Shown here piece after piece: positions 10,607 to 53,725 of a DNA stretch of 64,000 nt. The first letter of the stretch is position 1. Every line of letters starts with the position of its first letter. The notes under the pieces are model-generated. The model did not search any database. It was not told where the DNA came from and saw nothing but the letters and a program-made list of their open reading frames with translations. Source of the DNA: Amphiscolops sp. MND2022 (taxonomy: Eukaryota); NCBI GenBank assembly GCA_964187785.1, contig OZ076409.1, positions 46,440,001 through 46,504,000 on the forward strand. Reading direction: 5' to 3'. The position numbers were made by a program, and so were the translations under genes.

Positions 10607-13600
10607 TATTCAGCAGAATTACAGAGAAGTCTGTTTCAGAAGTATGAATCTGAAACTCATTATACGTGTAATCTCTGATTTATATTTCCGCATCTAAGTG
10701 ATAAAAATTTTCAGCACCTGGTGAATTAATATATTTCTCGGTATTCAAGAAACAACAACATGAGAACGTTCGAAGTCAGCGCCCCGCTTAAGGCTCAAAC
10801 AGCGCAATGTTTTTAAAAGATGTTCAGGGTGTTTTTGAGGAAAATCTCACAAATATGAGTGCCGAAAATGCGCAAAGGGTGTCTTTTGTGCTGGGGAAAC
10901 GCTTCTCTCTAAAAACCTAAGAAAGCAAAATCAGCAAGTTTTTTTTCTGGGAAAAAATTTCCGTCTAGAAAAGTCGCAGAGTGCCAAACAACCTGAAGGG
11001 CATCCTTCAAGCTCTTAACGCATTGCCGTAATTGAAGAAAATTCAAAGGCGGAATGATTTGGTGAAAAATGCAAAAATGACGCAGCGCTAAAAACGGTGT
11101 CCGGACATTACGCCCAAGGACATTACGCCCAAGGACATTACGCCCAAAGCGGACATTACGCCCAAATGTAAATTACCCACAAGGAAATTACGATAATGTA
11201 ATCAGCTATGCTCACATACCCCTAGTGCCCTAAATGCAGGAGCGAAGCGAAGCGGAGCGACGTGCCAATATGGCCATGCCTCAATGTTGCTACTTGGCGA
11301 AGGGAGCGAAGCGACCGAGCCATACAACAAACATGCTAACCTCTTCAAATAATAACCTGAAAAAAATCGCTGCTATTCTCTTTGAATAGCCTAATTTCCT
11401 TGGGCGTAATTTCCGTTTGGGCGTAATTTCCTTGGGCGTAATGTCTTTGGGCGTAATGTCCTAGAACCGCTAAAAACATATTCGAGAAGACGATAAAACT
11501 ATGAAATACTCAAAGGGAGTCCTCTTCTTCCTTTAATTCTGGATAAAGTTATGGACATAATTTAGTTATGAGCAAATAGATTTCTGGACAATGTGACAGA
11601 AATCAGGACAAGCTTGTGGCCAAACCATAGACGACAAATTTAGAACCTTTTCTGTAAAAAGTATCCACTACGCATACATTCTGTTGTCTGACGAATAAAA
11701 CTAGTCACTTAAAAGGAAAAGGCGCCGACTAAAAATATTCAGCAGAATTACAGAGAAGTCTGTTTCAGAAGTATGAATCTGAAACTCATTATACGTGTAA
11801 TCTCTGATTTATATTTCCGCATCTAAGTGATAAAAATTTTCAGCACCTGGTGAATTAATATATTTCTCGGTATTCAAGAAACAACAACATGAGAACGTTC
11901 GAAGTCAGCGCCCCGCTTAAGGCTCAAACAGCGCAATGTTTTTAAAAGATGTTCAGGGTGTTTTTGAGGAAAATCTCACAAATATGAGTGCCGAAAATGC
12001 GCAAAGGGTGTCTTTTGTGCTGGGGAAACGCTTCTCTCTAAAAACCTAAGAAAGCAAAATCAGCAAGTTTTTTTTCTGGGAAAAAATTTCCGTCTAGAAA
12101 AGTCGCAGAGTGCCAAACAACCTGAAGGGCATCCTTCAAGCTCTTAACGCATTGCCGTAATTGAAGAAAATTCAAAGGCGGAATGATTTGGTGAAAAATG
12201 CAAAAATGACGCAGCGCTAAAAACGGTGTCCGGACATTACGCCCAAGGACATTACGCCCAAAGCGGACATTACGCCCAAATGTAAATTACCCACAAGGAA
12301 ATTACGATAATGTAATCAGCTATGCTCACATACCCCTAGTGCCCTAAATGCAGGAGCGAAGCGAAGCGGAGCGACGTGCCAATATGGCCATGCCTCAATG
12401 TTGCTACTTGGCGAAGGGAGCGAAGCGACCGAGCCATACAACAAACATGCTAACCTCTTCAAATAATAACCTGAAAAAAATCGCTGCTATTCTCTTTGAA
12501 TAGCCTAATTTCCTTGGGCGTAATTTCCGTTTGGGCGTAATTTCCTTGGGCGTAATGTCTTTGGGCGTAATGTCCTAGAACCGCTAAAAACATATTCGAG
12601 AAGACGATAAAACTATGAAATACTCAAAGGGAGTCCTCTTCTTCCTTTAATTCTGGATAAAGTTATGGACATAATTTAGTTATGAGCAAATAGATTTCTG
12701 GACAATGTGACAGAAATCAGGACAAGCTTGTGGCCAAACCATAGACGACAAATTTAGAACCTTTTCTGTAAAAAGTATCCACTACGCATACATTCTGTTG
12801 TCTGACGAATAAAACTAGTCACTTAAAAGGAAAAGGCGCCGACTAAAAATATTCAGCAGAATTACAGAGAAGTCTGTTTCAGAAGTATGAATCTGAAACT
12901 CATTATACGTGTAATCTCTGATTTATATTTCCGCATCTAAGTGATAAAAATTTTCAGCACCTGGTGAATTAATATATTTCTCGGTATTCAAGAAACAACA
13001 ACATGAGAACGTTCGAAGTCAGCGCCCCGCTTAAGGCTCAAACAGCGCAATGTTTTTAAAAGATGTTCAGGGTGTTTTTGAGGAAAATCTCACAAATATG
13101 AGTGCCGAAAATGCGCAAAGGGTGTCTTTTGTGCTGGGGAAACGCTTCTCTCTAAAAACCTAAGAAAGCAAAATCAGCAAGTTTTTTTTCTGGGAAACAA
13201 TTTCCGTCTAGAAAAGTCGCAGAGTGCCAAACAACCTGAAGGGCATCCTTCAAGCTCTTAACGCATTGCCGTAATTGAAGAAAATTCAAAGGCGGAATGA
13301 TTTGGTGAAAAATGCAAAAATGACGCAGCGCTAAAAACGGTGTCCGGACATTACGCCCAAGGACATTACGCCCAAGGACATTACGCCCAAAGCGGACATT
13401 ACGCCCAAATGTAAATTACCCACAAGGAAATTACGATAATGTAATCAGCTATGCTCACATACCCCTAGTGCCCTAAATGCAGGAGCGAAGCGAAGCGGAG
13501 CGACGTGCCAATATGGCCATGCCTCAATGTTGCTACTTGGCGAAGGGAGCGAAGCGACCGAGCCATACAACAAACATGCTAACCTCTTCAAATAATAACC

Positions 13601-13891
13601 TGAAAAAAATCGCTGCTATTCTCTTTGAATAGCCTAATTTCCTTGGGCGTAATTTCCGTTTGGGCGTAATTTCCTTGGGCGTAATGTCTTTGGGCGTAAT
13701 GTCCTAGAACCGCTAAAAACATATTCGAGAAGACGATAAAACTATGAAATACTCAAAGGGAGTCCTCTTCTTCCTTTAATTCTGGATAAAGTTATGGACA
13801 TAATTTAGTTATGAGCAAATAGATTTCTGGACAATGTGACAGAAATCAGGACAAGCTTGTGGCCAAACCATAGACGACAAATTTAGAACCT
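10520..13891. repeat. Near-perfect tandem triplication (units 1129/1114/~1127 bp)
   Basis: TCTGTAAAAAGTATCC at 10522, 11651, 12765. Unit 2 lacks one 15-bp GGACATTACGCCCAA repeat; otherwise the units are almost identical. Confidence 0.95.
11096..11468. mobile_element. Mutator-like foldback MITE (arms of ATTACGCCCAA repeats, core X); triplicated copies at 12225-12582 and 13339-13711
   Basis: GGTGTCCGGACATTACGCCC...GGGCGTAATGTCCTAGAACC; 9-bp TSD GCTAAAAAC at 11087-11095 and 11469-11477. Confidence 0.8.
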
Positions 13892-14704
13892 CCGAGATTG
13901 GTTTCGAAGCATTACGGAAGCGTCCCGTTCATCAAATGAAAACTATTTCATTCTCATCAACATTCAGCTATGAATAATACCTGAATCAGTTGAATCAAAT
14001 CGATTAAAAAAGTACTTCATCTATTCGATTAAGGCCGCAAACCAATTTGCCACCAGTCATGGAGGGAGATGGAATTGTCGAAAACGAAACATCAACTCTT
14101 AAGATTTTGAACGAGATGTTTCAAGAAAAGCGGGCACTTCATGGAAAATAACTGGAAGTTTTTTGGCGGGGCAAAACAACCAAGCATTTTGTCCATTAGG
14201 AAATTAGAAGCAGTTTTAACAAAAGCCTCGGCAAAGCAACGATTTACTTTGAGATCTTCCGATTCTTGTTCTAGTTGAAAGTTGGGAAACTGATTTCAGA
14301 AATAGCTTCAGGAAGCGAGTTTTTTTCCTAACAGCATTTTGGCATTCGCAGCAATGTGTTCATCGTTGGAATGCAACATGTAACTACAGCATAAGCATGA
14401 AACGAAAATCTGCTGCACATTTCGCAGCAAACACTGACTCAAATAATTTAATCTGTGACACTAGTTTTAGAGATACAATATAAAAGGTGAACATACGTCG
14501 AAGCACACACGTTGCCTGTCTTGTTTATAGACTGTGTTTGCATTTGTTTCACTGACCAGCCAGCAATTGCGTGAAATCGTTTTAGTCGCAGTCTGAAGTT
14601 CATTCAGACTCTAAACTGCAGCTCCAATTTGCCGCTGTTTGAGTATATTAGAAATGAGAACTTGTTTCTCGAAATGAGAATTATTGAATAATATGATCGA
14701 GCAC

Positions 14705-14860
14705 TGTCACTGACGTGATTCATCAGCAACTGAAATACTTTAAAACTGTCAATGTTTTCATGATTGTTCATGCTTCGAGCTGGATAGTAGTACATTGAAC
14801 TGAATTGTAGTACGTTGACATAGAACTTTCAATTGAAGTAAAAGAAGTCAATCTTTTACA
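14705..14860 (+). repeat. BEL/Pao 5' LTR (156 bp)
   Basis: TGTCACTGACG...CTTTTACA, identical to 22002-22157. Confidence 0.97.
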
Positions 14861-15832
14861 TTTTGGCGCTCCTACAAATCCTTCTCCAACCTTCAACGCC
14901 GAGTTTTTTTTCTGCTGCTTTCTGCACCCTTCTCTACTGTTAGTGTGTTCCAATTTCGTGAGCAAAAAGAAATCAACCCTCATTTCCCTTCTCTGTTTTG
15001 GAAGAAAGACTACAGACAGCCTTTTTTTCGTCTTTTTTCCACAAAAAGATCTCTTCAACAGTAAAGTCAAAACCCTCTTCAGCAGTTTTTTCGATGGCAA
15101 AGCCAGCTACTAGCTTCCAAAGTTTCGACTACCCAGAAACAACTTCTTCAACCTTTCGCCTTTTTTCACCTTTACCCTTGCTGCACTGAAGAGAGTGCTA
15201 GGAGAAAAAAGAACAAACAAAAAAGTTCATTTTTAGGAACATTTTTTGTCTTAGTTTTGGTTCTGCCTTTTCAAGTAGCGATCTCTAATACAAGAGCGGT
15301 GTGAATAAATTTAAAAGACAAAAAGTAACGAAAGCACTTTACAAGGCCACTTTTGCCTAGGGGCTCAAAAGAACCCCCCTTTTCATCGCCGACCGAAAGT
15401 TTTTTTTCATCGCTGAGTTCAGGAATAGCTTCGTCCAGTTTTCGTCCTGTTGGATCCAGCTGCGTCCTGAACAGGTAAGTAAAACAGAATCGCCGTTCCG
15501 TTCCGTCTTTTAAGTCTTTTCAGCCATTTTTGTCGGTTCCCTTGCGGTTCGCTCGGTCCGTCTTCGCTCCTCAAAACAGCGATTTCACTAGCTTCAACCA
15601 GCGCATCGGTCTACCATTCATCTCTCTCATTGTATTCTTTTCCGTCGTGGTTGCGAATCGAACGGTTTTCTTGTTCCGTAAGTTGTCTCTTACCATTCTT
15701 TGTGTCAACGCAGCAGAGCTCCAGTCAAAAGATTGTCCTCCATCGAAAGATTCAGCCAGCTTTTCTACAAACAACAACCAACCACAGTGCATCAAAGCTG
15801 ACAACTTCTTCGCGCCACTTTCAGCAACCAGA

Positions 15833-18783
15833 ATGGGAAATAAAAAGGAACAAACTTTGCTCAATCGCTTCCGACTGGAAGAGCGATTGTTTGAGAACAC
15901 ACTAAAATCTTTGCAGCAGAATGTTCTTGACAACCAACCAGTTTCTGTTCTGAGGACAATTCTCAGAAATCTTTCTCATCGACATCAGCAATTGACAGAT
16001 ATCACCCAGCAGCTTACAGGTTTCCTCGCCAACGACGCTTTGGAAACTCTTTTCGACAGTATATCTCGAATCTCAAGTGAGTTCGAGAACGCCGAACTGC
16101 AAGTTTCTCTCAAAGAAACAGACCATCATCTACCAACCCGAAGCAGCAGTACCGCCAGCCGCCAGTTTCAACAAAACTTCTGTAACGAATATACTGACTT
16201 CCCACCGATATCACCTCCACTGAGTCAGTCACAACAGCAACCGCCGTTACCCATGGACCAAACAGCAGGTTCTGTCTTTCCCACAGCCGCATGCCAGCTC
16301 CAATTAGTGGAAGCTTCCACTACTCCAGCAGTCACTTTGTTCGAGTGAGCCGACACCCATTGTCACTTGCGGTAACCCATTTGGCACCTTGGCTACAAGG
16401 GTACCACCTGTTCTTCCTCAAACTCGCCGCCAAAACTCAGCAGTGCATCCTTTCCAAACTGATGACCGCTCCAAAGCTCACCCTCTTGCAGAAAATACGT
16501 ATCTCGTTCCACCGAACCCCGCATCGGTTATCCAATTGCCGTTCGACTGTCTGGCCCCTGACCGTACGCCACTCGAAACTCAGTCCAACTTGATTAACGC
16601 GAATACTTCGCCAGTTCCTCACACCTCACGTCTTGCTCCGACTGAACCGTCCGTGCCAGTTCTCGTCTCTCGCTTACCCAATTCGTATCAGTTTAACCAG
16701 CCCCTGCAAACCGGCAGCAATTTTCTGCCGGTCCTGCCATCACAGTTTAACCAGTTTCGATTTGTCTCCCAGCAGCAACTGCCGCACGCTACCGTCTCGT
16801 CCACTGCTTCAAATATCGCATTTGTGCAAAGCAATTTTGAGGCAGCCCTTCCGCCTACAACTAACGATCCGGTATTTACCGAAAGCCTGTCGCGCCCGAT
16901 TCCGAACCCAGAGCCGTTCCCTCCTTCCTCCATTACTGCTGAATCATCTTTTGCCGCAACATCCCATCCCGCTCCGACCAATGCTATATCAACAACATTC
17001 GATGGTTTCTCGCGTCCGATCGCTTCCACATACCATCCAACTCTCCAGCCGTCAACATACATTCCGACACATACACAACCACAAGCAATTAAACTCCCGC
17101 CTCTGCAATTACCCATGTTTGACGGTGACCCACTTCAATACCATGATTGGATCAACACCTTTAAAGCAACAGTCGATAGCAACAGGTCTATCACAGACAC
17201 TCACCGAATAACCTACCTCCAAAATTCAGTCGCCGGTCCAGCCAAAGACCTAATCAAAGGTTATTCATATAACCCCACCTCCTACGCAGCAGCACTTGCT
17301 GATATCGAGAAACGGTTTGGTGACGCCGACTATATCGTCGCGTCTTACATCGCAAAGCTGGAAAACTACCCACAATTTCCTCTGCATGATGCCAAATCCA
17401 TCACTACCTACAACACGTTCATCAAAGAATTCACTCGAATCTTCTCCGATCTTGGTTTTTCTTCCGACTTAACGTCTTCCACTGTCCTTCGCTTAGCCAA
17501 AGACAAACTCCCTAAACAACTTCTCGTCAAGTGGACTGAATACACCATCCAGAAGGCAATCGCCAAGCCCAGTCTACTTCATTTCCAAATTTGGCTGGAA
17601 CTCCAAACTGCAGTGTATGACAAACTCAACCTGCCGTCCTCCTCAAAAACTCACGCTTCGTCTTTTAAACCCAAATCTGATTCTGGTGATTCCTCGTCCC
17701 GAGATACTAATCGGAATTCAACAACAAAGAAAACATCCACCGTCTTGTCCATTCTGTAATCTTGAACACTATGCATCCAGTTGCCCAAAGTATCGCGATG
17801 CCACTCCGAAGCAACGTTTCAATTTCGTCAGAAATCATAACCTTTGCCTTAACTGTCTTGGTAAAGATCACATGAAATCTTCGTGTCCGTCCAAAAATCG
17901 ATGTTCCAAACACGATTGCAGTGAACTTCATCACACGACACTTCATGAAGCCTTCAACCAACCGCATACCCGATCTCAGCCTGACCAAGAATCAAACCGA
18001 AACACCTCCAATGCTACTCGTGGAACAGAACCCAACCGACAACGACCAATCCGATCGCCACCAACTGATCCCCCAACTCGCCCGTCACAGTTCAACGCCA
18101 CTGCCTTGAATCGGAAAACGGAAAAATTCCCGAAAGACCTGTTTTCAGTCCTTCAAATTGTCCCCGTTTCAGTTATCAATGATGGCAAAGTCTTCGATAC
18201 CTACGCCCTCATTGATCCAGGAAGTACTGGTACATATATCCTAGATCACATCACGAAAATCCTCAATTTGAAAACCAGTGAAACCTTTGACTTGGATGTA
18301 CAGTTTTTGAGTATCTTCCGCTCAATATCCGTCTCTTCGACACACTTTCTTCTCGCCCCCTACGCTGACTATGAGAAAACTTTCCCTGTTCGCAACGTCT
18401 TCTCCACTCCCAGCATCAACCTGCCCCCCGCCAACACAAAGGAATTGAACGAAATATGCCAACAATTTCCTCAACTTCGACATATAAAATTCCCCGATAT
18501 CGACAATGGTAAAATCGGAATACTCCTTGGTACAGCTTGCGTGCAGTTCACCCACGCACTGGAATGGATTAGCAGTGCTCCCAATTGTCCCGCCGGAGTT
18601 CGAACAGAACTTGGGTGGACCATTGCCGGTGAATTCACGCACCCAAAAAAGAAAAAACTCACCTCCAGGTGTCACCAAGTTTTCTTTGCCTCACACTCGC
18701 CTTCTCCCGAAATTCAACCTTCAACTGATGTGCTAGAAAACTACTGGACCATCGAAAAAACTCGACAAAAAGGTATCGCTTGA
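15833..18783 (+). pseudogene. gag: BEL/Pao gag-protease region, frameshifted near 16340, 17720 and 18760
   Basis: DUF1759-like IKLPPLQLPMFDGDPLQYHDW; three Cys/His knuckles (CPFCNLEH..C, CLNCLGKDH....C, CSKHDC...HHTTLH); protease YALIDPGS. Start ATG at 15833 is inferred. Confidence 0.9.
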
Positions 18784-18805
18784 AGACAAAGAAGCCCTCC
18801 GCATC

Positions 18806-21800
18806 TTGAATGAAACTTGTCACAATGGAGAACGCTATGAAATTGGCCTCCCTTGGAAATCTTCCGCAACGCTTCCAAATAACTACTTTGCCGCCGTCAG
18901 TCAAGCCCGTAGTCTTGAAAAACGTTTAAAAGACAAACCGATAACCTTACAGAAATACAAAGAAACCCTCACCAAAGATCTCGCCTTGAATTACGTCGAA
19001 CCTGTCACCAAACAACATCCCCCTCCTGATAAAATTTGGTACCTGCCAACACACCCTGTTGAAAATCCAAACAAGCCAGGAAAAATCCGTCGCGTCGCGA
19101 ATGCAGCCTCAAAGTTCAAAGGCTGTTCTCTCAACACTTGTCTTCTGACCGGACCTGATCTTTTGGCCGACTTGCTTGAACTGATTCTCCGTTTTCGCGA
19201 ACACGCCATCGGTGTCTTTGCTGATATCGAAAGCATGTTCATGCAAATAGCAATCCGTAAAGAAGACCAGTCAGCCTTACGCTTTGTATGGTTGGAAGAC
19301 AATTTAATTCGCCAGTACCAATACATCCGATTAATTTTTGGTGCTAATTGTTCGCCGTGTTGCGCAATCTTTGTACTCCGAAAATGCGCCGCCGACCATT
19401 CGACTCAGTTCCCGGAAGTTGATCAAGCCGTCCGAAAAAACTTTTACATGGATGACTTCATTAAGTCTTTTCCAAATGCGTCCGATGCTCGTCGTCTTAC
19501 CGAAGACTTACGCAACGTCCTAATGCGAGGCGGGTTCCGTCTCACGAAATTCCTATCTAACAACGCCGCCGCCATTAATCATCTTCCAGAATCCGAGAAA
19601 GAAACGCCCGTTCAAACGACCAGAGTTCTTGGTCAGACTTGGTGTCTGACTGATGACACATACACCGCCCCTCCGCCAAAGCCCGTACCCACGCCGACAA
19701 CTCTACGCCAGCTGTTCAGTCTTGTCTCGTCCGTGTTCGATCCCATCGGTTTACTAGCGCCCTTCGTCGTTCAATTTAAAATTCTTCTCCAGTCCCTTTG
19801 GAAACGTGGACAGAAATGGGATCAAATGATTCCGAATGACCTTCACACGATCGTAGTTAAACTCGTCAACGAATATCGGAACCTGCCTCATATTTCCGTC
19901 CCGCGTCAACTTTGCCAGCCCTGTACTCCCGTCCAGTTACACGTTTTCACAGATGCCTCGATTTCAGCATTCGCCGCCGTCATTTACGCCCGTCCGTCGC
20001 ATACCGCTTCGAAATCCGCTACAATTACTTTCGTACTCGGAAAAAGTCGCGTCGCCCCTCTCAAACAATTAAGCGTCCCGAAACTTGAACTTGAAGCCGC
20101 TCTACTGGGAGTTCGTCTACTCCAAGTCGTTCGCAGAGCTTTCGATCGAAACTTTCCTTGTGTTACTTTCTGGACAGATAGTTGTGTTGTGATCGACTGG
20201 ATCCAAAACCAGAAAAAACTCAAAAGTTTCGTTGCTCACCGAGTCAACGAAATTTCCCGCTCTTCTGCCCCTTCGGATTGGAGGTATGTTCCATCCAATC
20301 TAAATCCAGCCGATCACGGCACAAGAGGTCTGAAATCAACAGACATCACCGTGAAATGGACAAAAGGTCCAAAATTTTTGACAGAAAACGCTCAAAACTG
20401 GCCAACGAGGCCAAACAGCTCGTCCTCCGACAACGTTTGCGAATTCGCGAGTGCTAAGTATCCGCCCGTCCTGCTTGACGTTCGCCGATTTTCGTCATGG
20501 CTCCGCTTGTTTAAAACGGCCGCACAAGTCATACGTTTCGTTCGCCGCCTACGCTCTCGAAACTCTGATACAGGTCTAATTACCGCCGATTTCCAACTTG
20601 CCCGTCTTCTGCTCATCCGGCAGTCACAAGCTGAGTCGTTTTCATCAACCGTTGCCCACCTGAATTGCAACCTTCGTCCATCTCCGCAAGATATACTTTT
20701 GCCGTACAATACAGTCCTCGATGATCAAGGAATCCTTCGTTCTGCCGGCCGCTTGAAATACGCACCACTCCCGGAATCAACACGACTTCCCATCATTCTA
20801 GACGCTAAGAATCCCCTCGTGAAACTTCTTGAGCATTCCCATGCCGTTTGCCACCACGCCGGTCCGGAATACGTGAAAGCTTTCCTGCAACAACGTTATC
20901 TGATTATTGGAGTTCGTTGCGCGCTTCGAAGCGTAAGTCACAGATGTTTCGCTTGCCGCCGTTTTCGCGCCGAAAACATTCAACCTTTCATGGCTCCGCT
21001 ACCTCCTTTCCGCTATCCGTCACCAGATGCGCCTTTCCCTTTTGCTCAAACAGGTATCGACTTGTTTGGACCCTTTTTTATCGTCAATGGAAAAAAGCTC
21101 GAAAAGCACTACGCCATCATCTTCAACTGCCTGGTTACTCGCGCTTGTCATCTTGAGTCATGTCCTTTCATGACTAGTGACAGCTTCCTCAACGCTTTCC
21201 GACGATTCGTTGCCAGGCGCGGACAACCGCAACTTCTAAGATCTGACAATGGTAGCAATTTCGTTGGTGCTCGACGTGAATTGCAACAATCCCTCAACGA
21301 CAGCATAAAAAACGTCCGTGAGAATCTTCCTGAGTCCATTGAAATGCGATGGGACTTGAACCCACCTTTTGCCCCACACTTCGGTGGTGTTTGGGAAAGA
21401 ATGATACAAACAGCTAAAAGAACCCTCCTGATCATTCTTGGCTCGAAGAAACTGACACTCAATTTTTTCCAGACAATTTTAACTGAAACAGAACTGATGC
21501 TGAACTCCCGACCACTTACTCATGTAGCAGACCAACCCGATAACGAAGAACCCCTCACACCCAATCATTTTTTACTTCACAGACCGTACGCAAACCTGCC
21601 ACCAGGAATTTTCAACGATACGGAGGAACCCCTGTCCTTCAAGTCATGGAAAGACGTTCAGAAAGTAATGAACCATTTTTGGGACAGATTCCTCAAGGAG
21701 TATCTGCCCACTCTTCATCATCGCTCTAAATGGAATCAAGACCAACATCCTCTCCAAGTCGGGGATATTGTGTGGGTCCTCAAAGATTTGACCCCCCGTG

Positions 21801-21934
21801 GAATCTGGCCTCTGAGAAGAATCGTCTCTCTGCACCCTGGTCCTGATGGAATAACCCGTGTCTGTTCAGTAAGAACAGCTTACGGAACATTCGAACGACC
21901 CGCCGTTTCTCTTTCTCGCGTTTTCGCCCCGTGA
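18806..21934 (+). CDS. pol: BEL/Pao pol: RT, RNase H, integrase, DUF5641-like C-terminus
   Basis: ADIESMFMQI; FYMDD; LHVFTDAS; LGKSRVAPLK..SVPKLELEAA; HH..CFAC zinc finger; GIDLFGP; SDNGSNF; GGVWERMI. Open for 1042 aa. Confidence 0.95.
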   Translation: MNETCHNGERYEIGLPWKSSATLPNNYFAAVSQARSLEKRLKDKPITLQKYKETLTKDLALNYVEPVTKQHPPPDKIWYLPTHPVENPNKPGKIRRVANAASKFKGCSLNTCLLTGPDLLADLLELILRFREHAIGVFADIESMFMQIAIRKEDQSALRFVWLEDNLIRQYQYIRLIFGANCSPCCAIFVLRKCAADHSTQFPEVDQAVRKNFYMDDFIKSFPNASDARRLTEDLRNVLMRGGFRLTKFLSNNAAAINHLPESEKETPVQTTRVLGQTWCLTDDTYTAPPPKPVPTPTTLRQLFSLVSSVFDPIGLLAPFVVQFKILLQSLWKRGQKWDQMIPNDLHTIVVKLVNEYRNLPHISVPRQLCQPCTPVQLHVFTDASISAFAAVIYARPSHTASKSATITFVLGKSRVAPLKQLSVPKLELEAALLGVRLLQVVRRAFDRNFPCVTFWTDSCVVIDWIQNQKKLKSFVAHRVNEISRSSAPSDWRYVPSNLNPADHGTRGLKSTDITVKWTKGPKFLTENAQNWPTRPNSSSSDNVCEFASAKYPPVLLDVRRFSSWLRLFKTAAQVIRFVRRLRSRNSDTGLITADFQLARLLLIRQSQAESFSSTVAHLNCNLRPSPQDILLPYNTVLDDQGILRSAGRLKYAPLPESTRLPIILDAKNPLVKLLEHSHAVCHHAGPEYVKAFLQQRYLIIGVRCALRSVSHRCFACRRFRAENIQPFMAPLPPFRYPSPDAPFPFAQTGIDLFGPFFIVNGKKLEKHYAIIFNCLVTRACHLESCPFMTSDSFLNAFRRFVARRGQPQLLRSDNGSNFVGARRELQQSLNDSIKNVRENLPESIEMRWDLNPPFAPHFGGVWERMIQTAKRTLLIILGSKKLTLNFFQTILTETELMLNSRPLTHVADQPDNEEPLTPNHFLLHRPYANLPPGIFNDTEEPLSFKSWKDVQKVMNHFWDRFLKEYLPTLHHRSKWNQDQHPLQVGDIVWVLKDLTPRGIWPLRRIVSLHPGPDGITRVCSVRTAYGTFERPAVSLSRVFAP

Positions 21935-22001
21935 CGGCTCGCTCCGCAATTTCAAATTTGCCTCTCCTCCTCTCTTCTTTGCAGCTCGGGGGGGTGAAGC
22001 A

Positions 22002-22157
22002 TGTCACTGACGTGATTCATCAGCAACTGAAATACTTTAAAACTGTCAATGTTTTCATGATTGTTCATGCTTCGAGCTGGATAGTAGTACATTGAACTGA
22101 ATTGTAGTACGTTGACATAGAACTTTCAATTGAAGTAAAAGAAGTCAATCTTTTACA
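22002..22157 (+). repeat. BEL/Pao 3' LTR (156 bp)
   Basis: Identical to 14705-14860. Confidence 0.97.
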
Positions 22158-26830: not shown

Positions 26831-26865
26831 CAGTGGCTTTTTAGAGCAGTGGCGGTTTAGAAGAG

Positions 26866-40310: not shown

Positions 40311-41002
40311 GGCGACGTATAACCAGGTCGAAAAAGTTTGGTCGAAAAAACTGAGGTCGAAACTGGTCGAAAAATAATTGGGTCGAAATTGAATATGTAG
40401 CATTTTTTGATCGAACGATTAAGGTCGAACTGCTTTTCAAGATAGAATTTAGTCGAAAAAATTAACCAACAATCTTATTTAATCTAATTTCAGGTTTGGT
40501 TATGGGTGACCGCGGTCGTGAACACATCAAATGGCAGAGACTTTTAGTTTATATAATGTGTGGCATATGCGATGTATGCACGCTCGCCCTCACCGTCGCA
40601 AAGACCAGCTCCCACTACGATCGCTTCGCGATCTCCGTTCCCGCTAGGTCTTTGCTCCTGTTCGACCTCGCTTAGCAAGATGGGAATATAAGCGGCCCCA
40701 AGGGGCCGCGGGGCATTAGAGGAAATGGGGACATATCCGAGGCACGTTTTGTACTAAAAAAACCGCGTTAAAGTTCGTCCATTCTGCAAAAAATCGCATT
40801 TCTGAACGTTTTGACATTTTTTGAGCAATTCTGACCACTTTCTAGTTGTTCGACGCTTTTCCTATTTTTCTATTCGGTATAGGTCCGTTTTTTGCAAACT
40901 TTCGACCATTTTCTTCGATCATTTTACTTCGATCAATTTCGTTCGATCACAGTTTCGCCCTTGCAATTCGACCGGATTATTTCGACCCGTTTCGTGTCAC
41001 CC
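40311..41002. mobile_element. Mutator-like foldback MITE (GGTCGAA arms, core Y)
   Basis: GGCGAC..GTCACCC ends; arms of GGTCGAA / TTCGACC; 9-bp TSD TTTCTACAA (40302-40310, 41003-41011). Confidence 0.8.
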
Positions 41003-41068
41003 TTTCTACAACACAAATGTAACAAACGTAAGACAACGTACAGGGTACTGGTGGGGTTAATTCAATTG

Positions 41069-41975: not shown

Positions 41976-42069
41976 ATTCAATTGGAGTGGTTAGTACCGG
42001 GGTTTTGTATTAACTCAACAATTTTTAATAGCAACAGAACAATGTTTTGTATTGTTTATCTATTCTTGT

Positions 42070-45000
42070 CTATTTGGTTTCGGGTGGTGCTATTTCAAAG
42101 ACTCTTGGGAGACGCTCTTCGGCACTGGATTCTGGTTCCACTTTAGTCACCATTATGTTGTTACCCAGCCAGATTGGTTTTTTGGGTTTCTTGTTGAGCT
42201 TCGAGTTGGTTTTTTCTCCTTTTTCCCATTTTACGTTTCCTTTTATGCGTATCTTCTTTGTTTCTTGTTTGTCCATCGTTTCTTTTCTTTCTGGTTCTTC
42301 ATCTATTTCGGTTTTTGACTCTTTGATTTGGATTGGTTGCTCGGGGTTTTCTTCTCTTTCGGCTGCTTCTTGTGTGATGTTTTCTTCTTCTGATTGTTGT
42401 TCTATCTGTGGCGTTTTTGGAATTTGTCCCATTTCAGAGCTGCTTGTCGATTCCCGCCAAAATGGTTGTTCTGGCTTTGCTGGCCTTTCTTGGATTTTTG
42501 ACTTCTTTTTGACAGTTTTCTTCTTGGCGGAGTTTGCACCTTGTCCCAATTTGGCCACATCGCGCTTTGAATAGATTGTTTGTTTACCTGATTTGAGTAA
42601 CACCGTTATGGTATTTTCGCTTTGATTGATTATTTGGCCTTTTATCTTTTTGAAGTTTCCTTCAAGTTTCGTCCCCTTTACCCTTTCTCGAACGAGATTT
42701 GTTGAGTCGGCCTCCTCACTGAAGTCTTCCGGCTCGATCTGAAGTTGAGGATCTTTCTCTGAAAAACACTTTCTGATCATAGCCGACTTTAGTGCGTTCG
42801 GTTTTTTACCCATTTGTCTTTCATAAACCGATGTATTGTCTACCCCTTTTTCAGTTCTCAGTGCAAATAGTATTGTAAACCCGATGTACCTTTTTGAACT
42901 ACTATTTTTCTATTTGTTCTAAGTCTTTCGTTCAATGTTCTGATCATTCTTCTACCTTCCCATCACCCCGATGGTCTCGAATGGGGAAGATTATGTGTTG
43001 AATAAATCTTTCTTTACAAAGTTGCTGAAATTTTTCTCCCTTGAACACTGCCCTGGATCTGTTCTAATCCTTTTTGGGATTCCTTTAGTTGCTATATATT
43101 CTAGTAAAAATTCTACAACTTTATCTGCCGATGGGTTAGGTAAAACATTGCAGCTGGCCATCCTGAGCTATTATCTACTGAAACTAGCAAATATTTCTTC
43201 TGTTTGTATGCATTTTGAAATGGTCCTGCGAAATCTAATGAAATTTCATCATTTGGACTTTTTGCTTCAGGTAATTTTCCAAATTTGTTTTGACTATTTA
43301 TACATTTAAGGTTCTTACCTGCTTTTTGGCATTCGGTGCAGTTTCTTGCCATTTCTACAATCTCACGGTGGATCCTGGGCCACCACACGTCGGATGCCTC
43401 CCGTAACATGGCATCTCTGCCGGCGTGCCCGAAGTGTATGGCCCTTAGTACGTTTTCACGCATGCCTTTGGGGATTACCAGCCGTTGATCCATGTATAAT
43501 AAATTTTTCGAGTCCAGTGTCAACTGTCAACACACTCGCGTTCACGCTTGGGTTTCTTTTGCCTTCAATCTTAATTCTGATTGGTTCATTTTTATTGGCC
43601 AATTTTCTACTCGATGGCGGAACGATTTCGTCTACTACGTTTATTGTCAACCAGCTATTGAACATTTCTTCCGCTTTTACTGTTGATCCACAATATTCGG
43701 AAGGGTGTCGTGAAAGGTAATCGGCTAAGCCTATTGTTCTACCCGGTGCGTGTATTACTGAAAAATCAAATGGAAGTCGTCTGTCTACCTACCTGGTTAA
43801 CCTGCTTGAGAAAGTTTTGTTTCCTTTATTCGCTTTTAGTACACTCTGTAAGGCTTCGTGGTCTGACACTACTCCGAACTTTTCACCGTAGACGTAATTT
43901 TCAAAATGTTCAATTGCCCAAACTACTGCGAGTAGTTCTAATTCGTTAATTGAGTACTTCGCTTCAAGTTCCGTTAAAAACCTTGATGCGTACGAAATTG
44001 GCTTCCAGCCCATGTCTTCTTTTTTGTTGAAGGACCGCTCCTAGCTCTTGTTTACTCGCATCGCAGATTATTCGCAGTGGTTTTTTCTTTTTGAATTGTG
44101 TTAGTTCTGCAACTTTTTTCACTTCTTCATTTACTTTTTTGAACGCCGATTCATGCTCTTCGTTCCAATTCCATTCTGCGTCTCTTTTTGAAATTGATCT
44201 GAAGGGAAAACAAATAGTAGCTAAGTTTGGAACAAATCTGTTAAATTGATTTACCGCACCCAAAAATGACCTCAGTTCTTTCAAATTGGTTGGTCTGAGT
44301 TTATCGGAAATCCCTGGTACCTTTGTGTTAATTGGCGAAATGCCTGAGCTTTTCAGTTTGAACCCCAACCACTCTATTTCTTGTTTTGCAAAATTGCATT
44401 TTCCCGCCTTTAATTGTAATTTCGCTTCATTCAATGCTTTTAGTATTTCCCGCACTTTATCTAAATGTTAACTCTTGGTTCCCTTGGTTACTATTAAAAT
44501 GTCGCCAATAAAAACAAATACTTCTCTAAATTTAGCTAATAGTAAATCCACTACTTTTTGAATTTCTGTCGGCATAACCGTCAGACCGTAAAAACCTGTT
44601 ACAAATCTATATGTTCCAGTGGATTCGCCTCCAATAGTTTAAAAAGTGCAGTGTTTGGCTGTTAATGGGTGTAAAGGGACTTGACCGTATGCATAGGTCA
44701 TATCTACAGACGAGTACCATGCCTCTCCGTTTTCATTATCGAGTTTTTCTGCTACCATATCTAGTAAATTGTCTAGATTTGGCATCTGGTATTTATCTTT
44801 ATCAATCGCTTGGTTTAGCGCTCTAGCGTCTAATGCAATTTTCACTGAACGGTCTTTTTTTACCGTTATTACCGTTGGTTGTATAATAAAGATATCATCT
44901 TTAAATTCGGCTATTTTCTCGATATGACCGTCTTTCAGTAATCGTTTTATTTCCGCGTCTACCGCATTTTGTAGTTGTATTGGAATTCGCCTTCCTTTTT

Positions 45001-45669
45001 GATGAGAAATTTTTGCGTCTGATTTCAGATTGATTTTTACTTGGTGACTTTTTATTCTACTGTTTTTTTGAACAAATCTGGAAATTCATTACTTAGTTGC
45101 TTTGCTTCTGCACTTAGTTCATCTTTTTCTACTGAACTAACTTCCTACTCACCTTCATTCACTGGTGTAAATCTGTATCTCAACGTAGAGAGCCACTCTC
45201 GACCGATAATGGACTTTGTTCCCTTTTTGGCAATTAGAATTCTCGCCTTCTTAATGTACTGATTGCCGACTTGTAGTTCGCAGTTTCCATTAAAATCCAC
45301 ATACTTCTCTCATTCTATCATATCGCGCACGGGAAGGGTTTCTCTTTTCATGATCTGCTTTATTTCATCCAGCGCAAAATTTGTGACATGTGATCCTAAA
45401 TCGATCATTGTTTTGAATTTGTTTCCATTGATGAATCCTTCCATGTAATATGGTTTCGTGTTTTCGTCTCCTTCTACATTTAGAAGCATTATGTTTTCAT
45501 CGACTTCATCCTCCTGGTCGACTAATTGTACACGGCGGTTTGTTTGCTCACTGCTGCCATTTAGCTTGAATTTGCCATTTTGTTGAAGTTTGTCTTTCTT
45601 CTTTTGCAGACTTTATCCAAATATCCTTTTCTGCCACAGTAATTACACATCGTATTTGGCCCTTTGCAG
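42070..45669 (-). pseudogene. pol: Gypsy gag C-terminus and pol (PR, RT, RNase H, integrase, long charged tail), disrupted
   Basis: CNYCGRKG knuckle; KIALDARALN; SVDMTYAYGQV; FIGDIL (decayed xxDD); CDASK..LGAVL; YSINELELLAV; HFGHAG..CTEC; SLDFAGP. Many frameshifts and stops. Confidence 0.92.
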
Positions 45670-48600
45670 TGTAAGAAACAATAACTCTGATTCAGATAAT
45701 ATATTGAAGCCCTACCAAACTCATATCACTGAAACAGGTCTTAAATATATAAAATAAAAGATCAACAATCTCACGTATTTTGAAACAATAAATAGATAAT
45801 TTTATTTTTCCAGAAGCGTGAACTGACTAGTTGCTACATTATGGTGAGTCACAGCTACATAGGCGTGGCAATTGTGCTGCTCGCGTATGGCGGTGGTTTC
45901 AATGGCAATCACGTGTGTTTAATCGCACATGTACACATGACCAAGCGTGGTCTATAGGTTCAGGTAAGGGAATCAAGGCAAGCACTTAAAATGAATAAAT
46001 TACCAGCGCCATGACGTCACGTCTTTCTCTGAAGTTCACAGCGGTATGACGTCACGTATACAATCATAGCTCCACAAGTAAATGGCCATTTCGGATCGCG
46101 TTTGCCAGTTCTTGTGGCGGCGATCGCGGCCGTTTGGTCAGGCAATCTGCCAATTGGTTCCTTGTTTCTATCCATTTCAATTTCAGCGTTCCTGGTCCAG
46201 AATCTTCATTGACCAAACTACGTAAAGATCCAATATCCACTCTCAGACGTTTGTCTAGATTATTTTTCGTACTTTTAACGGAATCGATCAATCTCTTGTT
46301 ATCTGTAAAAGCAATCTGCGGAAATTGTGTATTTAGGAGTTCTTTAAAAAAGTTGAAAAATAAGGAATCCAGTGTCTATTCCTTCAATACGTGCCATTGT
46401 CTCTGCTGATAAAGTACTACGAACAACGTGGCGTAACTTTCGTGACTGCCAGGAGATTATTGAAGCATAATTTGTGATACTTTCACAAAGAAAAACAATA
46501 TGTCCCCCTTGTGTCGATCCATCTGCACAATTTGCGAGTGAAGCGTCCGAAAAGGTGACAATCGCCCAGTTTGCAATATCTCCGAGATTCGGAAAGAATA
46601 GTTCGATGCCTCCGCTGTGTTTAATCTTCCGAATCAACTTCTTTAACCGGATAAGGTCGCTTAAAGTGCTACTGGGGACAATGCTCAGGAAAGAAGAAAC
46701 ATCAAAGCAGATCATTGGTGACGCCTGATTGGACAACCACTGGAATTGCCCTAGAACTCTTCGCATCTCCGCATGTTCATCAATCGTAGTGGATCGATGT
46801 TTTCCTTGTGTAGATTGCTCAATGTGGATTTCTTCAAGCTTATCGACATAATTAGATAGTGATACATGTATTCCGTCCAAGTAATGTCGAATATCGAGTC
46901 CCAAAAATCTACAACGAATACCCTGTCTTTTCCCGATAGTAAAAGTTCGTGATAACTTCTCGACCACGCTTGTAAAGAAACTGGTCGTTCCACATGTCCA
47001 AAAATCGTCTACGTGTATACCAATTATCCCCCTGAGTATATCATCTACTTTATAGAAAAATAACGATTGATCCAGCGTGGAAATAGTGCAATTTAGAGCC
47101 AATAATTCAGTTTTAACTCTTTCATACCACAATCGTGATGCGTCATTCAGGCCGTATACTCCTTTATTCAATTTCCACAAGTTTCCACCTGCTGCCACAT
47201 CTTTCGGAGGTAGAAGAAAAGTATTTCGTTTCAATAACTGGCCTTGCAAAAAGGCTGTTCTGACGTCCAGAAATTCTACTTTCCACGAGGGCCGCGAAGC
47301 AATAATTGACAAAACTGCCCTGTCTCTTTTGACACCGTTGGTGAATCGGTGGTCAAATTCTTGGCATTTTCCTGACAACCGCGTGCTACCAATCGAGCTT
47401 TTAGGCGTCCATCATCCTTATTTGTCAAAACTCACCTGGAGCTTACATAACGCTGTCCTTCGTTTGGTACACTGGTATACACCTCATTAACGCGCCAGTT
47501 TTCTACTTCTTCCAGTTTGCGTCTAAAAACGGGTCATGGGCAGCTACTAACGCGTGATCACTTGTTTCATGTTTTGATCACTCGGTCACTTCGTTTTCAA
47601 AATCTATGGCACCAAGAGACCCTGCAACGCTGTCTGGCAAAATGTATTGCAGATTTAACCAATTTTTATGTTTTTCAGTGGCTTTTCCTGCCCTTCCGAG
47701 CATTTTTGCAATAAATTCGTCCCCAGAATCGTATTTCGTCGCGGTTTTAAATTTGATTTGCTCGTGTTTTGAGGGAAGAGCAGCAGAATGAGCATTATTC
47801 CCGTCTGATGACTCAATTGCTGGGGTAACAGTGATTTCTTTGCTCGCAACGGGTACATCGTCGTCTTCTGACCCAACAGAAACAGCATCTTGGTCGAATC
47901 TAGGCTGTACACTCGCATCCGAGGAAGGTTTTGCCAGCGAGTCAATTTCTTGAATTTGATCATTCGGAGGTTCTGGATCGTTCTGATAATGACATTTCCG
48001 TAACGAATGATTGTGTACACGTGATATAAGACCACCATTACGTACTATCAAGATTTGACCGTCCATGCCGATAATTTTTCCAGGACTGCGCCATTTTTCT
48101 TCGTTCTGCCGTTTATAATAAACAAAATCACCAATGTCGAATGGACCATCTGATGACCGAACGTTAGCTCGCAGAGCCCGTTTGATACGTGATGATCCCT
48201 CGGCTTTAAGAAACTCAGCTCGTGACTTGTTTAAAAGGCTCAGATGACGACTTATGACTTCTATTGTTGCCAAATTCTTGGTTGCTGGAACTTGGCAATC
48301 TACAACGCTTGGTAACCGAGGGTTTTGTCCGAAAACCAACTGGTGTGGTGTGAACCCCTCCTGGTTGTAAAGCGAGTTTTTAGCATAACAACAGTATTTG
48401 ATCAATGTTGCCTCAACCATAGTACAATCGTCGTCTTGGCGTAGTTTCAAGAACCTTTCTGTCAGTATGGCGTTATGGCGTTAGACCCGTTAGACCAGGG
48501 TCTTTCTGCACCGCTTGTTTTAACAAAAATTCCGTAATTTTCGGCCAAAGAGCGGAAGTGCTGATTATCAAACTCTCCTCCATTATCTGTTAGTGTAGCC

Positions 48601-50319
48601 AGGGGAACTCCGAAAACACTTATCCATTCCTCTAGGAAGGCAATAAGAACTGTATTGGAATTCTTGTCATAAATTATACGTGCTCAGCTGAAACGACTGA
48701 ATAAATCAATGAAATGAATATAGTATTTTCCCACAGAAATTTGATGTAGATCCATGGCAACTTCATTGAAAGTTGTCGCCAGTGGTAGTCCAACAACAGG
48801 GCGATTTTTCGGGCGACCGTATAAGGGGCAAATCTGACATTTGGCAATGGCCTTTTCCAGTTTTCTTCCTGGAAGATCGTGACCCGCTTGTGATAACAAC
48901 GACTTTAATTTGTCCGTGTGACAGTGTGCAAACTGTTTGTGCAGTTTCAAAATTTCTTTCTCGGCTAATTCTTCGTTCTTCATGAACAAAACATTCGGAT
49001 TATTTGGATTATCCCCACGTGATTCCAGATTAATAGCAAGATGGCCCGATGATAAAATCTTGAGCCTGACTTTCTCAGAATGATCTGCAATTGAAACAGA
49101 GCTATGTTTCATGTCTATCTCTGCCCCCATCAAATTCAGAGAGCGCAAACTGATCAAACAGGGTAATGATCCGTCGATTACATGGACAGCCAAATAACAA
49201 GCCATATTGCCAATTTGTACAAGAATATTGACCCGTTTCGTAGCGAAAACCTTTTGCCCATCCCCAAAGACAACAGAAACGTTCCGTACGCTATGATTTG
49301 TAACCTGCAGGTGGGTTGGTAATTTGCTAATGAAGTGTTCCATCCATTTTGATCCTGCAATGGTCAGAGTACAACCCGTATCGACAATTCCGTGACCATA
49401 CGAGTCAGACAATAGCATCTTTGATACAGTAGCAAAAGTAAAAAAAAACTCCACTTGGCTCGTCACTTTTGGAGATTTCTGGACAATCTTTCTTCCAGTG
49501 ATATCTTGAACCACATTGAGAGCATGTAGTAATATAGCCCGCATTGTTGGGCGGATTGGTGCCTCCACGTCCACGACCACCTCGCTTGAATCCACGATAG
49601 TTCCCACGATTGTGACCTCTGTACTTTCCTCTATTAGTCCGGAAGGCTACTCCTTCATCTTGAGCATTTTCGGCTTCTAATGCCTCGATACTGAGGTCAA
49701 CCATGAGTACAGGCTCCGATTTCACTGCTCAAGCAGACATTTCTGCATCACGCTTTTTCGTGTGATCATTTCCAAAGATGCGCCGTAGGGAGCTTTTCAT
49801 CGATTCAAATTCTAATTCTGTCGTGGCCGATAAAGCAATTTGGCGTTCCTGCTTATCAAGATTGGCACAATAAAGTAATTTACATGCTAGGACTTCTTTT
49901 GGTAATTTAAATTCAAACTTAACAAGCTCCGCGTTCCTTTTGTCGAATTCATGAATATAATCGGTCATTGACAGCTCGCCTTGGTTGATTGTTTCAAATT
50001 TGACATATGCATCATAAATTTGGTCCGTTTTATTGCGTCCAAACGTGTCGTTTAATTTGGTTGTGAGCACAGTCATTCCGGTATAAGCATCCAGCTCTTC
50101 ACTCTTTATACCAAGAGCTACCTCCCGTTTTCTTCCGGTCAATGTGAGCGTCACTTTCGAACGATTTGTTGTCCTCCCATTGAGGTGGGGTTTTGAAGCT
50201 GCTCGTCATCCTGCTACCATGTAAGAAACAATAATTCTGAGTCAGATAATATATTGAAGCCCCACAAAACCCATATCACTGAAATAGGTATTAATTATAT
50301 AAAATACAACAGAACAACA
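45670..50319 (-). mobile_element. Ty1/Copia LTR retrotransposon (GalEa-like) nested in the Gypsy gag
   Basis: LTRs 50220-50319 and 45670-45767; TSD TGCAG (45665-45669, 50320-50324); iMet-type PBS TGGTAGCAG; domain order Gag-PR-IN-RT-RH. Confidence 0.95.
46064..50209 (-). pseudogene. Copia gag-pol polyprotein, frameshifted
   Basis: MTSSFKTPPQW; CSQCGSRYHWKKDCP; GIVDTGC; KLHKQFAH..CQIC; VAMDLH; DNGGEF; LDVRTAFLQG; HVDDF; FSDAS; NQLADCLTK. Confidence 0.92.
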
Positions 50320-51111
50320 TGCAGAACTTTAAATGTTCTATTGGAAAGTTTCCAGCGCCGCATCTCCAACACTCTTTTGTATTGAAGCTGATCCCGCTGA
50401 CTGCACAGACTGGTTCTTCTTTTATCTTGGGCTCTTGTCCGATGTATCCATATGTCTTCTGTCTCTTTAGCCCATCTTCAAAAGCAATTGCGAATTGGAG
50501 AGCCTCTGCTGGAGTATCTTTTGGCTCTGTGCAGAGCTTTTCTTGAACCAGTTTATTTGACATGTTGAGAACGAAAATGTCATAGACTAAACCTTCTGTC
50601 TGATTGCCAAAATTACATCTAGCCGCCAATCCATTTAAAGCATTCCAAAACTGGGGAAGGGATACGTTCGGCTTCTGCTTTCTTGACAAAAAGGTATGTT
50701 TATCCATAGTTCTATTTCTTCGCGTTTGTAAGCATTCATTACAATGTTGCAAGAATTGGGGTAACTGAATAAGCAGGATGTTAATTTGAGGGAATTTGTC
50801 CATGATCATTTTTCTGCCATTTTTGCGAAGAAATGTAAAGTAAGCTTACTATCTTTCTTGCAGCCGCATTTTCTTCCAGGTTTCCCATCAGTGCTGGAAC
50901 ACGAGGGTTATGTTCATCCGCCGTCCTGGTGATTTCGGTTACAGAAATTGATTGTCGAGCCAGTACTGCTTCGAATAATTGTTGCCAACTTCGAATAATT
51001 GTTGCCACTGCTCCCAGTCGTAAGAGGGTTCTTTCTCGGCCTCTTGCCAAAAGTAGTTCAGGCCTGGTACCGGTGAATTAGAAGATTCATCATCAGTAGG
51101 TCGCAGCGCCA
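50320..51111 (-). pseudogene. gag: Gypsy gag (N-terminal part)
   Basis: MALRPTDD..YDWEQWQQLFE; FLSRKQKPN..QFWNALNGLAARCNFG; CWRCGAGNF..HLKFC, which resumes at 45669 after the Copia insertion. Confidence 0.88.
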
Positions 51112-51309
51112 TGTTAACGATAACGAACTTAAGTGAAAGACGAGAATTCGGTAACAACTGTAAGTTTGTACGGAATCTGATGTTATGGCAGTTGATGTTA
51201 ATTTGCCATTTTTGGCTAAGTTTGGCAGGTTGTTATTATTAGGTAATTTAATTATTTTCACACTTCTGTTTTCTCAGCAATTAAGTTCAGTTTTCTAGAC
51301 TCTACTACA
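51112..51309 (-). repeat. Gypsy 5' LTR
   Basis: Matches 39914-40107 and is followed (minus strand) by the PBS. Confidence 0.93.
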
Positions 51310-52939: not shown

Positions 52940-53325
52940 CGGTATGGAACCAGTTTGTAGGAAAGCAGTTTGTAGGATCCAGTTTGTAGAAAAGTGACGT
53001 CCAGTTTGTAGAAGTTTTTTTCTACAAACTGGACCATGGTATCATTTTGAATTAGGTCCAGTTTGTAGAATACCTGTTTGTAGAAATCATCAATTCGAGA
53101 AGAAAATAAGACCAATAATGTAGGAATAATGCCAAGTATAAAACGTGCTTCGGATATTCCCTCATTTTCTCCATTTCCTCGTGGCCCCTTGGGGCCGCTT
53201 ATGTTCTCATCTTGCTAAGCGAGGTCGAACAGGAGCAAAGACCTAGGAAATAGGTCCATTTTGTAGAATATCACTTTGTAGAATTCTACAAACTGGAGAA
53301 TTAAATTCTACCAACTGGACATCCT
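52940..53325. mobile_element. Degenerate foldback MITE (CCAGTTTGTAG arms, partial inverted core Y)
   Basis: CCAGTTTGTAG repeats on the left and CTACAAACTGG on the right; core Y fragment at ~53150-53247. No TSD seen. Confidence 0.6.
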
Positions 53326-53394
53326 TCAGACAAGATCTTGAGAGCTCCACCGCCTATGATCTAGAGGAATAAGATCGAAAAACTGATTAGTGGG

Positions 53395-53725
53395 GCTTAT
53401 CCGGTGTATGCAAGCTCGCCCTCACCGTCGCAAAGACCTGCTCACACTACGATCGCTTCGCGATCTTCGTTCCCGCTCCGTTTGCTCCTGTTCGACCTCG
53501 CTTAACAAGATGGGAACATAAGCGGCCCCAAGGGGCCGCGGGGCACTAGAGGAAATGGGACATATCCGACGGCCAAAAACATTTTTATTTGAAAACGCTA
53601 GGTGTTCGGCAACTTGTCCCTTCAAAATTCGGCAAATTCAAAGGGACAATTAGATGAAAAAAATTCGGCAAATTGTCCTTCACGTTCGGCAAATTGGGTT
53701 ACGGCAAATTTTTTTACGGTTTTCC
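53395..53725. mobile_element. Half foldback MITE (core Y plus an arm of TTCGGCAAATT repeats)
   Basis: Core Y at ~53395-53570 followed by five CGGCAA(A/C)TT repeats; left arm missing. Confidence 0.6.

Follow-up and report, generated by a model that had tools for sequence, protein, structure and literature searches.

Examination of a 64-kb stretch of the genome of Amphiscolops sp. MND2022 (contig OZ076409.1, forward-strand positions 46,440,001 to 46,504,000; hereafter the window, in which all coordinates below are counted) reveals one family of interior sequences of 140-190 bp, here termed the core, which occurs there in eight independent copies and is carried by foldback transposons (elements A to G) whose arms for the most part cannot be aligned with one another. 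That this core module has been moved sideways between arm families is strongly supported. On one strand the core is predicted to fold into a rod in which short stems alternate with tandem G-A loops and a GAA triloop forms the cap; this putative one-strand G-A rod, which escaped an earlier note on the same DNA, would be the most informative feature of the core. A wider account, in which the relayed interior module acts in cis as a single strand, is offered tentatively, as its chances fall just short of even. The evidence is drawn from the window itself, pattern scans, published papers and a public run (X1) that contributed three contigs.

A hidden Markov model (HMM) of the cores recovered 10 hits with E < 1e-11, amounting to the eight independent copies, and no other hit under E 1; a head motif at fixed spacing is found in all ten. 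The earlier note had recognized two subtypes, X and Y, of a single core family, and a single family they are, although the two are homologous in opposite orientation and come together only once Y is reverse-complemented. X and the reverse-complemented Y then have in common a 28-nt head, a CATACA tail and the word CAGGAGC, whose distance from a head is constant; the head is duplicated in Y relative to X. In all six pairs tested, the local X-Y scores exceed those of 498-500 of 500 dinucleotide shuffles, and gapped global alignments of full-length copies give about 60-70% identity. An HMM built from X alone does not find Y; together with the shuffle-beating scores this indicates a relation that is real but distant. 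Core X in element A (11202-11339, forward strand) comprises the head, a middle G-A hairpin (11239-11261) and a tail G-A hairpin (11297-11320), and the block common to A and G spans 11185-11373 in A. Core Y in element B (40553-40740, reverse strand) comprises the duplicated head, a GC-rich 18-bp palindrome (40692-40709) and the predicted rod (40578-40674, with its apex at 40619-40633). Two copies had been missed in the earlier note, namely a core X at 7082-7270 in element G and copy Z (8187-8345, forward strand), an armless and diverged X-like copy with an internal deletion.

Seven of the eight independent cores lie in or beside foldback spans, which make up 6.1% of the window (binomial P = 2e-8, or P = 1e-4 when neighbouring elements are pooled, with a core in four of five clusters). 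Two of the seven spans, those at 7012 and 53390, were delimited only after a core had pointed there; the unbiased figure is that of a core-blind k-mer scan, in which all five foldback types found carry a core. The 21 rows of that scan comprise nine for elements A to E, one for a 134-bp satellite, nine for the terminal array and two of low complexity that proved armless on inspection. The core is absent from three other elements with terminal inverted repeats (TIRs) and from three complete HINE-like elements in the window.

The core-bearing foldbacks show six arm motifs, where the earlier note had counted five, and the reversed pattern that it had described, a conserved interior between unrelated arms, is real. 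The six full-length cores, compared across arm types, are 90-97% identical within a subtype (85-89% for the half core of element E), with identities across unrelated arms of 119/123, 114/122, 158/168, 156/165 and 152/165. By contrast, the score exceeds that of shuffles in just two of the 21 arm pairs and not in the other 19, the pairs under 0.05 being B-C (p 0.02), which have the same motif, and E-F (p 0.007). Moreover, the GGTCGAA arm motif carries core X in C and core Y in B. The arms thus do not align as diverged versions of one TIR, the possibility that the earlier note had raised against its own reading, and cores so nearly identical within arms that mostly do not align are hard to reconcile with ordinary vertical divergence, in which a single ancestor would have kept its interior while its arms diverged. 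The general design common to all hosts, the arm motif common to B and C, and 10-11-mers common to the units of G and the interior of B do point in that direction; nevertheless, as full-length cores differ by just 3-10% within a subtype and one arm motif carries both subtypes, this explanation is largely refuted and its probability is very small.

The cores and arms named in the earlier note are all present, and its three clean 9-bp target-site duplications (TSDs) are exact. Element A (11096-11468, forward strand) has arms of 15-bp ATTACGCCCAA units, 7-bp asymmetric ends followed by GGA, and an exact 9-bp TSD. It occurs three times within a 1.1-kb tandem triplication (the further copies at 12225-12582 and 13339-13711), with the identical TSD each time, and hence represents a single insertion event. 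Element B (40311-41002, reverse strand) has arms of GGTCGAA units and an exact 9-bp TSD, and is located in the 3' non-coding part of a Gypsy-type retrotransposon. Element C (41069-41975, forward strand), with GGTCGAA/GATCGAA-unit arms and an exact 9-bp TSD, has an interior that is nearly all core X, in two stretches (41187-41315 and again from 41866). Element D (41317-41865, reverse strand) is nested within the tail of that core X; it has CTTGGCTTAA-unit arms around a core Y at 41462-41655 and is flanked by an 8-bp duplication, read by eye, that matches at 7 of 8 positions. The arms and core expected at element E (52940-53325, forward strand) are there, the arms being built of CCAGTTTGTAG units, but the core is only the first half of Y (53135-53246), cut within the rod, and no TSD was found. 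Element F (53390-53731, reverse strand) consists, as the earlier note had it, of a core Y, here full (53390-53569), beside a single arm of TTCGGCAAATT units (53585-53731); the second arm is missing at the side where E abuts, and there is no TSD. Element G (7012-7420, reverse strand), absent from the earlier note, has arms of degraded ATTCAAAGCGTCGAAAG-type units and an exact 9-bp TSD, and we regard it with medium confidence as the sixth arm type. Overall, an exact 9-bp TSD is seen in four of the seven hosts (A, B, C and G), with a chance of 1% for a 9-mer match in the TSD scan (5000 random trials). Arm periods of 14-15 are reported for A, B, D and E, and unit positions were determined for all seven hosts. 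The asymmetric 7-bp terminal motif with GGA is clear at both ends of A, similar at the end of F and absent from B, C and D.

Inspection of the core boundaries shows that they are ragged rather than fixed, and that flanking sequence is shared pairwise: the pair A and G has 17 nt in common ahead of the motif block and 35 nt behind it, the pair B and E has 16 nt in common ahead of the head, and an exact 16-mer recurs in C and D, though its distance from the head differs between the two. The non-core parts have 23 exact words of at least 10 letters in common, compared with about 7 for random segments, an excess that comes partly from the arm units of B-C and G-B. The left junction of A coincides with a 7/8 match, read by eye, between the arm unit and the leader of G. 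In the seven interiors tested, the core is not bracketed by a TSD, or by a sub-terminal inverted repeat or direct repeat that rises above background. The three contigs of run X1 all fall on cores (depth 2.0-2.6). In one of them Y has an F-type arm unit on one side and, on the other, an E-like leader (24/30 letters, by eye); in another, Y is linked to a TTCGATC arm piece at a distance of 68 letters; and the third record has an X head with a Z-like continuation (14/19 letters, by eye), its 30 flanking letters shown being free of any arm motif. Taken together, the ragged ends, the pairwise flanks and the nesting of D in C favour a lateral relay of interiors over independent landing. Thus, of the two options in the earlier note, a modular core or a separate element landing in foldbacks, re-assortment fits better, with the armless relative leaving some room for landing. 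A circular-permutation reading, suggested by an 11-mer that precedes the head in G and follows the tail in C, was dropped as close to chance.

For the copy in B, the predicted Y rod, about 100 nt long, is the RNA fold of minimum energy, with a z score of -4.11 that none of 200 shuffles equalled; under the same RNA parameters the z scores are -2.89 for D and -2.26 for F, and those of the opposite strands are weaker (-2.24, -1.68 and +0.18). With a custom score that takes G-A pairs into account, seven of nine X and Y segments outscore every shuffle and exceed their opposite strands by a wide margin, while both G segments, whose hairpins are decayed, and Z fail. A window-wide scan for rods with at least two G-A loops gave 8 hits, all of them in cores, against 0-1 in each of six shuffles, and missed D, F and G. 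Evidence from elsewhere bears on the stability of such loops: as far as the excerpted text goes, the GCGAAGC mini-hairpin contains a sheared G-A pair and, in its DNA form, has a melting temperature of 76.5 C, against 39 C for the related RNA GCGAAAGC hairpin, and hairpins of this type are nuclease-resistant, bind single-stranded DNA-binding protein poorly and lie at phage priming sites (PMC13037366). Searches of Rfam gave no match at gathering score in the window, and at E up to 10 in 40450-41750 they gave seven weak hits (E 0.36-5.3), none centred on a core. Covariation, which the earlier note had suggested looking for, is thin: a single compensatory change turns C-G into T-A in the apical stem in record 1 of X1, a record that also has two G-A to A-T changes and one wobble.

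Several observations weigh against a functional rod, and against the wider account as a whole. The minimum-energy RNA fold of F differs from the rod; under DNA parameters the z scores of Y are only -1.73 and +0.27; and X folds no better than shuffles (z +0.37, -0.16 and +1.05 with RNA parameters, +2.08 with DNA parameters). The rod folds well as RNA too, and the motif was already in view when the G-A score and the segments to be folded were selected. Two-sided changes occur in none of 59 predicted pairs in B, D and F, rod-breaking substitutions are present in D, F and record 1 of X1, and the last of these, at a depth of 2.1, breaks two rod pairs. Element E carries half a core only. No MULE (Mutator-like element), HUH or tyrosine-recombinase frame is seen among the 88 stop-free frames of at least 75 aa outside retrotransposons and arrays, or among the longer frames of the window, and all the elements come from this one window.

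Two further loci resemble the core hairpins. An isolated G-A hairpin at 36290-36345 (reverse strand), with neither arms nor a core head, has a design near-identical to that of the middle hairpin of X, and its custom score is above 199 of 200 shuffles. A two-copy repeat (5798-6022 and 32012-32330, 73% identical) contains GAATGCAGGCGAAGC and has X-tail-like words on its other strand; it is possibly another G-A hairpin family.

In light of the relayed interiors and the predicted fold, we propose that foldbacks insert into or beside one another (nesting is seen once and abutting once), and that gap repair would then, by way of internal deletion or of template switching at short homologies, leave outer arms around an inner core. 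The module was probably a free small repeat at the outset, resembling the armless copy Z at 8187. Pairing of the arms would present the core in a loop, where it could act as single-stranded DNA that protects or primes the strand, the predicted rod standing behind the pyrimidine-rich head with its fixed spacing; the folded core would raise the copy number of its carriers and might be kept for that reason. We give somewhat less than an even chance to such single-stranded action in the arm-paired loop with a gain in carrier copy number, and a mild preference to DNA over RNA as the acting form. A sharper version, in which the core would in effect be a cis-acting eukaryotic single-strand origin or protective cap acquired and kept by unrelated cut-and-paste miniature transposable elements with inverted repeats (MITEs), which it would enable to amplify through a fold-back single-stranded intermediate, we consider unlikely as it stands, though worth stating.

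Alternatively, the core could be a mobile element in its own right, moved as a single strand by an HUH or tyrosine-recombinase enzyme and inserting by preference at the single-stranded apices of foldback palindromes without benefit to its host. In its favour are the armless copy Z and the X-head contig without an arm motif in its visible flanks; X, Y and Z are alike at their ends and different inside, as subfamilies of mobile elements are, A and C have almost no spacer left outside the shared block, and all eight heads begin with TC. Nonetheless, the seven interiors lack any bracketing repeat above background, sequence beyond the core is common to elements with unrelated arms, none of the five foldbacks found blind is without a core, and no element has two cores of its own; we regard a self-moving core as rather improbable. 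Slightly less probable again is a neutral relay, in which a few early captures were amplified, nesting and deletion shuffled the interiors, and the rod is a functionless relic of the donor repeat. Here the central region common to three Galileo subfamilies is a precedent, for which the excerpted text shows no function (PMC3573991), and the substituted rod pairs, the decayed hairpins of G and the lost half core of E also speak for it; the clustering of B, C and D and of E and F also means that the events are not independent. It fits poorly with the retention of two core subtypes, each in three or four arm types, and with the fact that random deletion should often remove the core, yet all seven arm-bearing elements keep, at the least, the head and the fixed-spacing motif.

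A transcribed RNA module, SINE-like (short interspersed nuclear element), a source of small RNA or a protein-binding rod, carried by the foldbacks as cargo, would fit the RNA folding of B, in which the Y rod is the structure of minimum energy, and the fixed-spacing head could serve as a promoter-like signal; tandem G-A pairs are, besides, common in RNA. Against such cargo stand the lack of an Rfam match on the core, of a tRNA and of a B box in 14 strands, so that we regard it as improbable. Its loops, furthermore, are GAA triloops, described in the excerpted source as the form stable in DNA (PMC13037366). A relayed module acting in cis as a single strand is the reading we retain, at the tentative level given above.

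Comparison with known systems helps to define what is new here. Tm1/Phantom elements of the Mutator type are described, in the excerpts at hand, as having arms of 13-15-bp tandem units in unequal numbers, TSDs of 8-10 bp (mostly 9 bp), asymmetric 7-bp ends followed by GGA, and nested insertions, and one Tm1 group has a histone-hairpin motif in its interior (PMC3169594). The hosts in the window match these elements in TSD size, in their inverted arm units of about 15 bp, in the unequal numbers of those units and in nested insertion; the asymmetric ends and GGA are clear only in A. They differ in that Tm1, on the same excerpts, combines one arm family with varied interiors, whereas here six arm motifs enclose one interior family, and in that no transposase is seen in the window. 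We regard the hosts as non-autonomous Tm1/Phantom-like Mutator foldbacks of several unrelated arm families, for which we observe the architecture and infer the transposase. In Galileo of Drosophila mojavensis, a central region 98% identical is found with the TIRs of three subfamilies, which provides a precedent for the exchange of interiors between ends; those TIRs are, however, homologous (77% identical in the case given in the excerpt), so that conversion explains the exchange there, whereas most arms here are unalignable (PMC3573991). The part in common here is, in addition, a predicted structured module. Our literature search found no description of a structured core shared by foldbacks with non-homologous arms; repeat databases and most subscription papers lay outside that search, and the core may already be catalogued in such a database.

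The predicted rod also recalls the priming sites of phages and plasmids (the G4 origin, ssiA and the N4 promoter), which according to the excerpted source use GCGAAGC-type triloop hairpins with a sheared G-A pair (PMC13037366). An 18-mer taken from the X tail hairpin was matched by 14 viral contigs and a single rearranged control by 2, and 12 of the 14 sites lie outside open reading frames of at least 110 aa. These viral matches end at 18-23 nt, and four of the 14 contigs are related to one another. Their neighbours include no consistent replication gene, with 13 of 52 proteins having any Pfam family. In the absence of further similarity or a consistent neighbour, a shared design is indicated rather than shared descent. 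The four related contigs (L022, L029, L032 and L035) are 16-19 kb long and have the 18-mer in a hairpin-rich stretch, and among the 16 of their proteins that were scanned no Pfam family was recognized. In scans of contig collections, the head pattern gave no match in genome contigs or viral contigs and one in metagenome contigs, and other core patterns matched 1 and 3 times in prokaryotes and 14 and 0 times in viruses; the 19 loci were rejected as core homologues, none matching past 18-26 nt.

Assignment of the core to other known classes of element was likewise not successful. HINE/DINE-1 elements are, in the excerpted text, non-autonomous Helentrons, short and non-coding, with terminal hairpins and 11-15-bp sub-terminal inverted repeats (PMC4067079). 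The core resembles them as a short non-coding sequence with hairpins, and differs in having neither an 11-15-bp sub-terminal inverted repeat nor T-run flanks. It was rejected as a HINE, the longest exact sub-terminal inverted repeat being 4-8 nt in the seven interiors (background mode 6, range 5-10); in the clearest HINE-like control the repeat measured 10 when exact and 12 when one mismatch was allowed, though the script missed the repeat in two decayed controls. A T run precedes the leader in C and D only, and no palindrome is conserved past the tail. Canonical Helitrons have a 5' TC after a host A and a 3' hairpin followed by CTRR and a host T. The TC of the core heads is preceded by A in two of eight, and those two share their flank. 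A CTAA lies 13 nt past the tail hairpin in A and G, where it is followed by C and by continuing homology, and none follows the tail hairpin in B, C and D; the core was therefore also rejected as a canonical Helitron. SINEs have a tRNA, 7SL or 5S head with A and B boxes and a 3' tail, and with no tRNA called by ARAGORN, no Rfam match and no B box in any of 14 strands, the core was rejected as one of these as well. In the SINE superfamilies CORE, V, Deu and Meta, which are RNA-polymerase-III retroposons, a conserved middle is joined to exchangeable ends. The core is similar to them in that a constant middle is combined with exchangeable ends for partner recognition, and different in that its hosts are cut-and-paste DNA elements with no tRNA head or B box. 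Cryptons have terminal direct repeats of 4-6 bp in fungi and oomycetes and, in the excerpt, no terminal repeats in animals, so the lack of clear ends in the core is a likeness to animal Cryptons that is not diagnostic (PMC3212892). Imperfect ATATG-centred repeats, present in Y at both head and tail, do not rise above background.

The window is repeat-rich throughout, with a BEL/Pao element, a Gypsy-type element with a Copia-type insert, LINE (long interspersed nuclear element) fragments, a piggyBac-like remnant and several arrays. The Gypsy-type element (39914-51309, reverse strand; long terminal repeats (LTRs) 92.9% identical) encloses the Copia-type element (45670-50319) as well as foldbacks B, C and D. 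The BEL/Pao element (14700-22157) has LTRs that are 99.4% identical and long frames that are almost intact, both of which point to a recent insertion. As BEL/Pao elements are not known outside animals, its presence points to an animal host. A broken piggyBac-like transposase remnant lies at 1412-2800 on the reverse strand (PF13843, E 2e-9 for one frame). Two short TIR elements (37277-37445 and 38719-38874) have CAGTGGAAGCCGC ends and TA flanks, and are presumably Tc1/pogo-like; the second is enclosed in a 1.2-kb element (38267-39442) with 39-bp TIRs. A-box- and B-box-like words at 27137-27200, where ARAGORN makes no call, are perhaps a tRNA-derived SINE head. Tandem arrays occupy 5037-5641, 28372-31883, 33288-33975 and 53782-64000, their repeat units measuring 134, 104, 172 and about 1075 bp, respectively; the 134-bp unit has many palindromic TCATGA words, and the 172-bp array sits within a HINE-like element. 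The HINE/Helentron-like family (395-1136, forward; 8368-9118 and 33034-34318, reverse; further ends at 10230, 10593, 11722 and 12836) shows a T run, a 9-12-bp sub-terminal inverted repeat, a 3' hairpin and a TTGTT end, with one such end inside the 1.1-kb unit triplicated at 10520-13891.

How MITEs reach high copy numbers by means of a cut-and-paste enzyme is a long-standing question, and an interior module common to elements with unrelated ends provides a direct handle on it. The case is real and non-random, and stands on one window, with a partial precedent in Galileo and no partner enzyme. What is new relative to Tm1 and Galileo is one predicted structured core across mostly unalignable arms. 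If the core did prove to be relayed neutrally, it would be a well-documented yet modest extension of the Galileo chimeras. If it instead has a role in cis, it would be the DNA-transposon counterpart of the central domains shared by SINEs, with a G-A rod convergent on phage and plasmid signals. In that event, repeat annotation by interior similarity would merge unrelated transposon families, and G-A rods, which are poorly scored by standard DNA folding parameters, would be overlooked signals in animal repeats.

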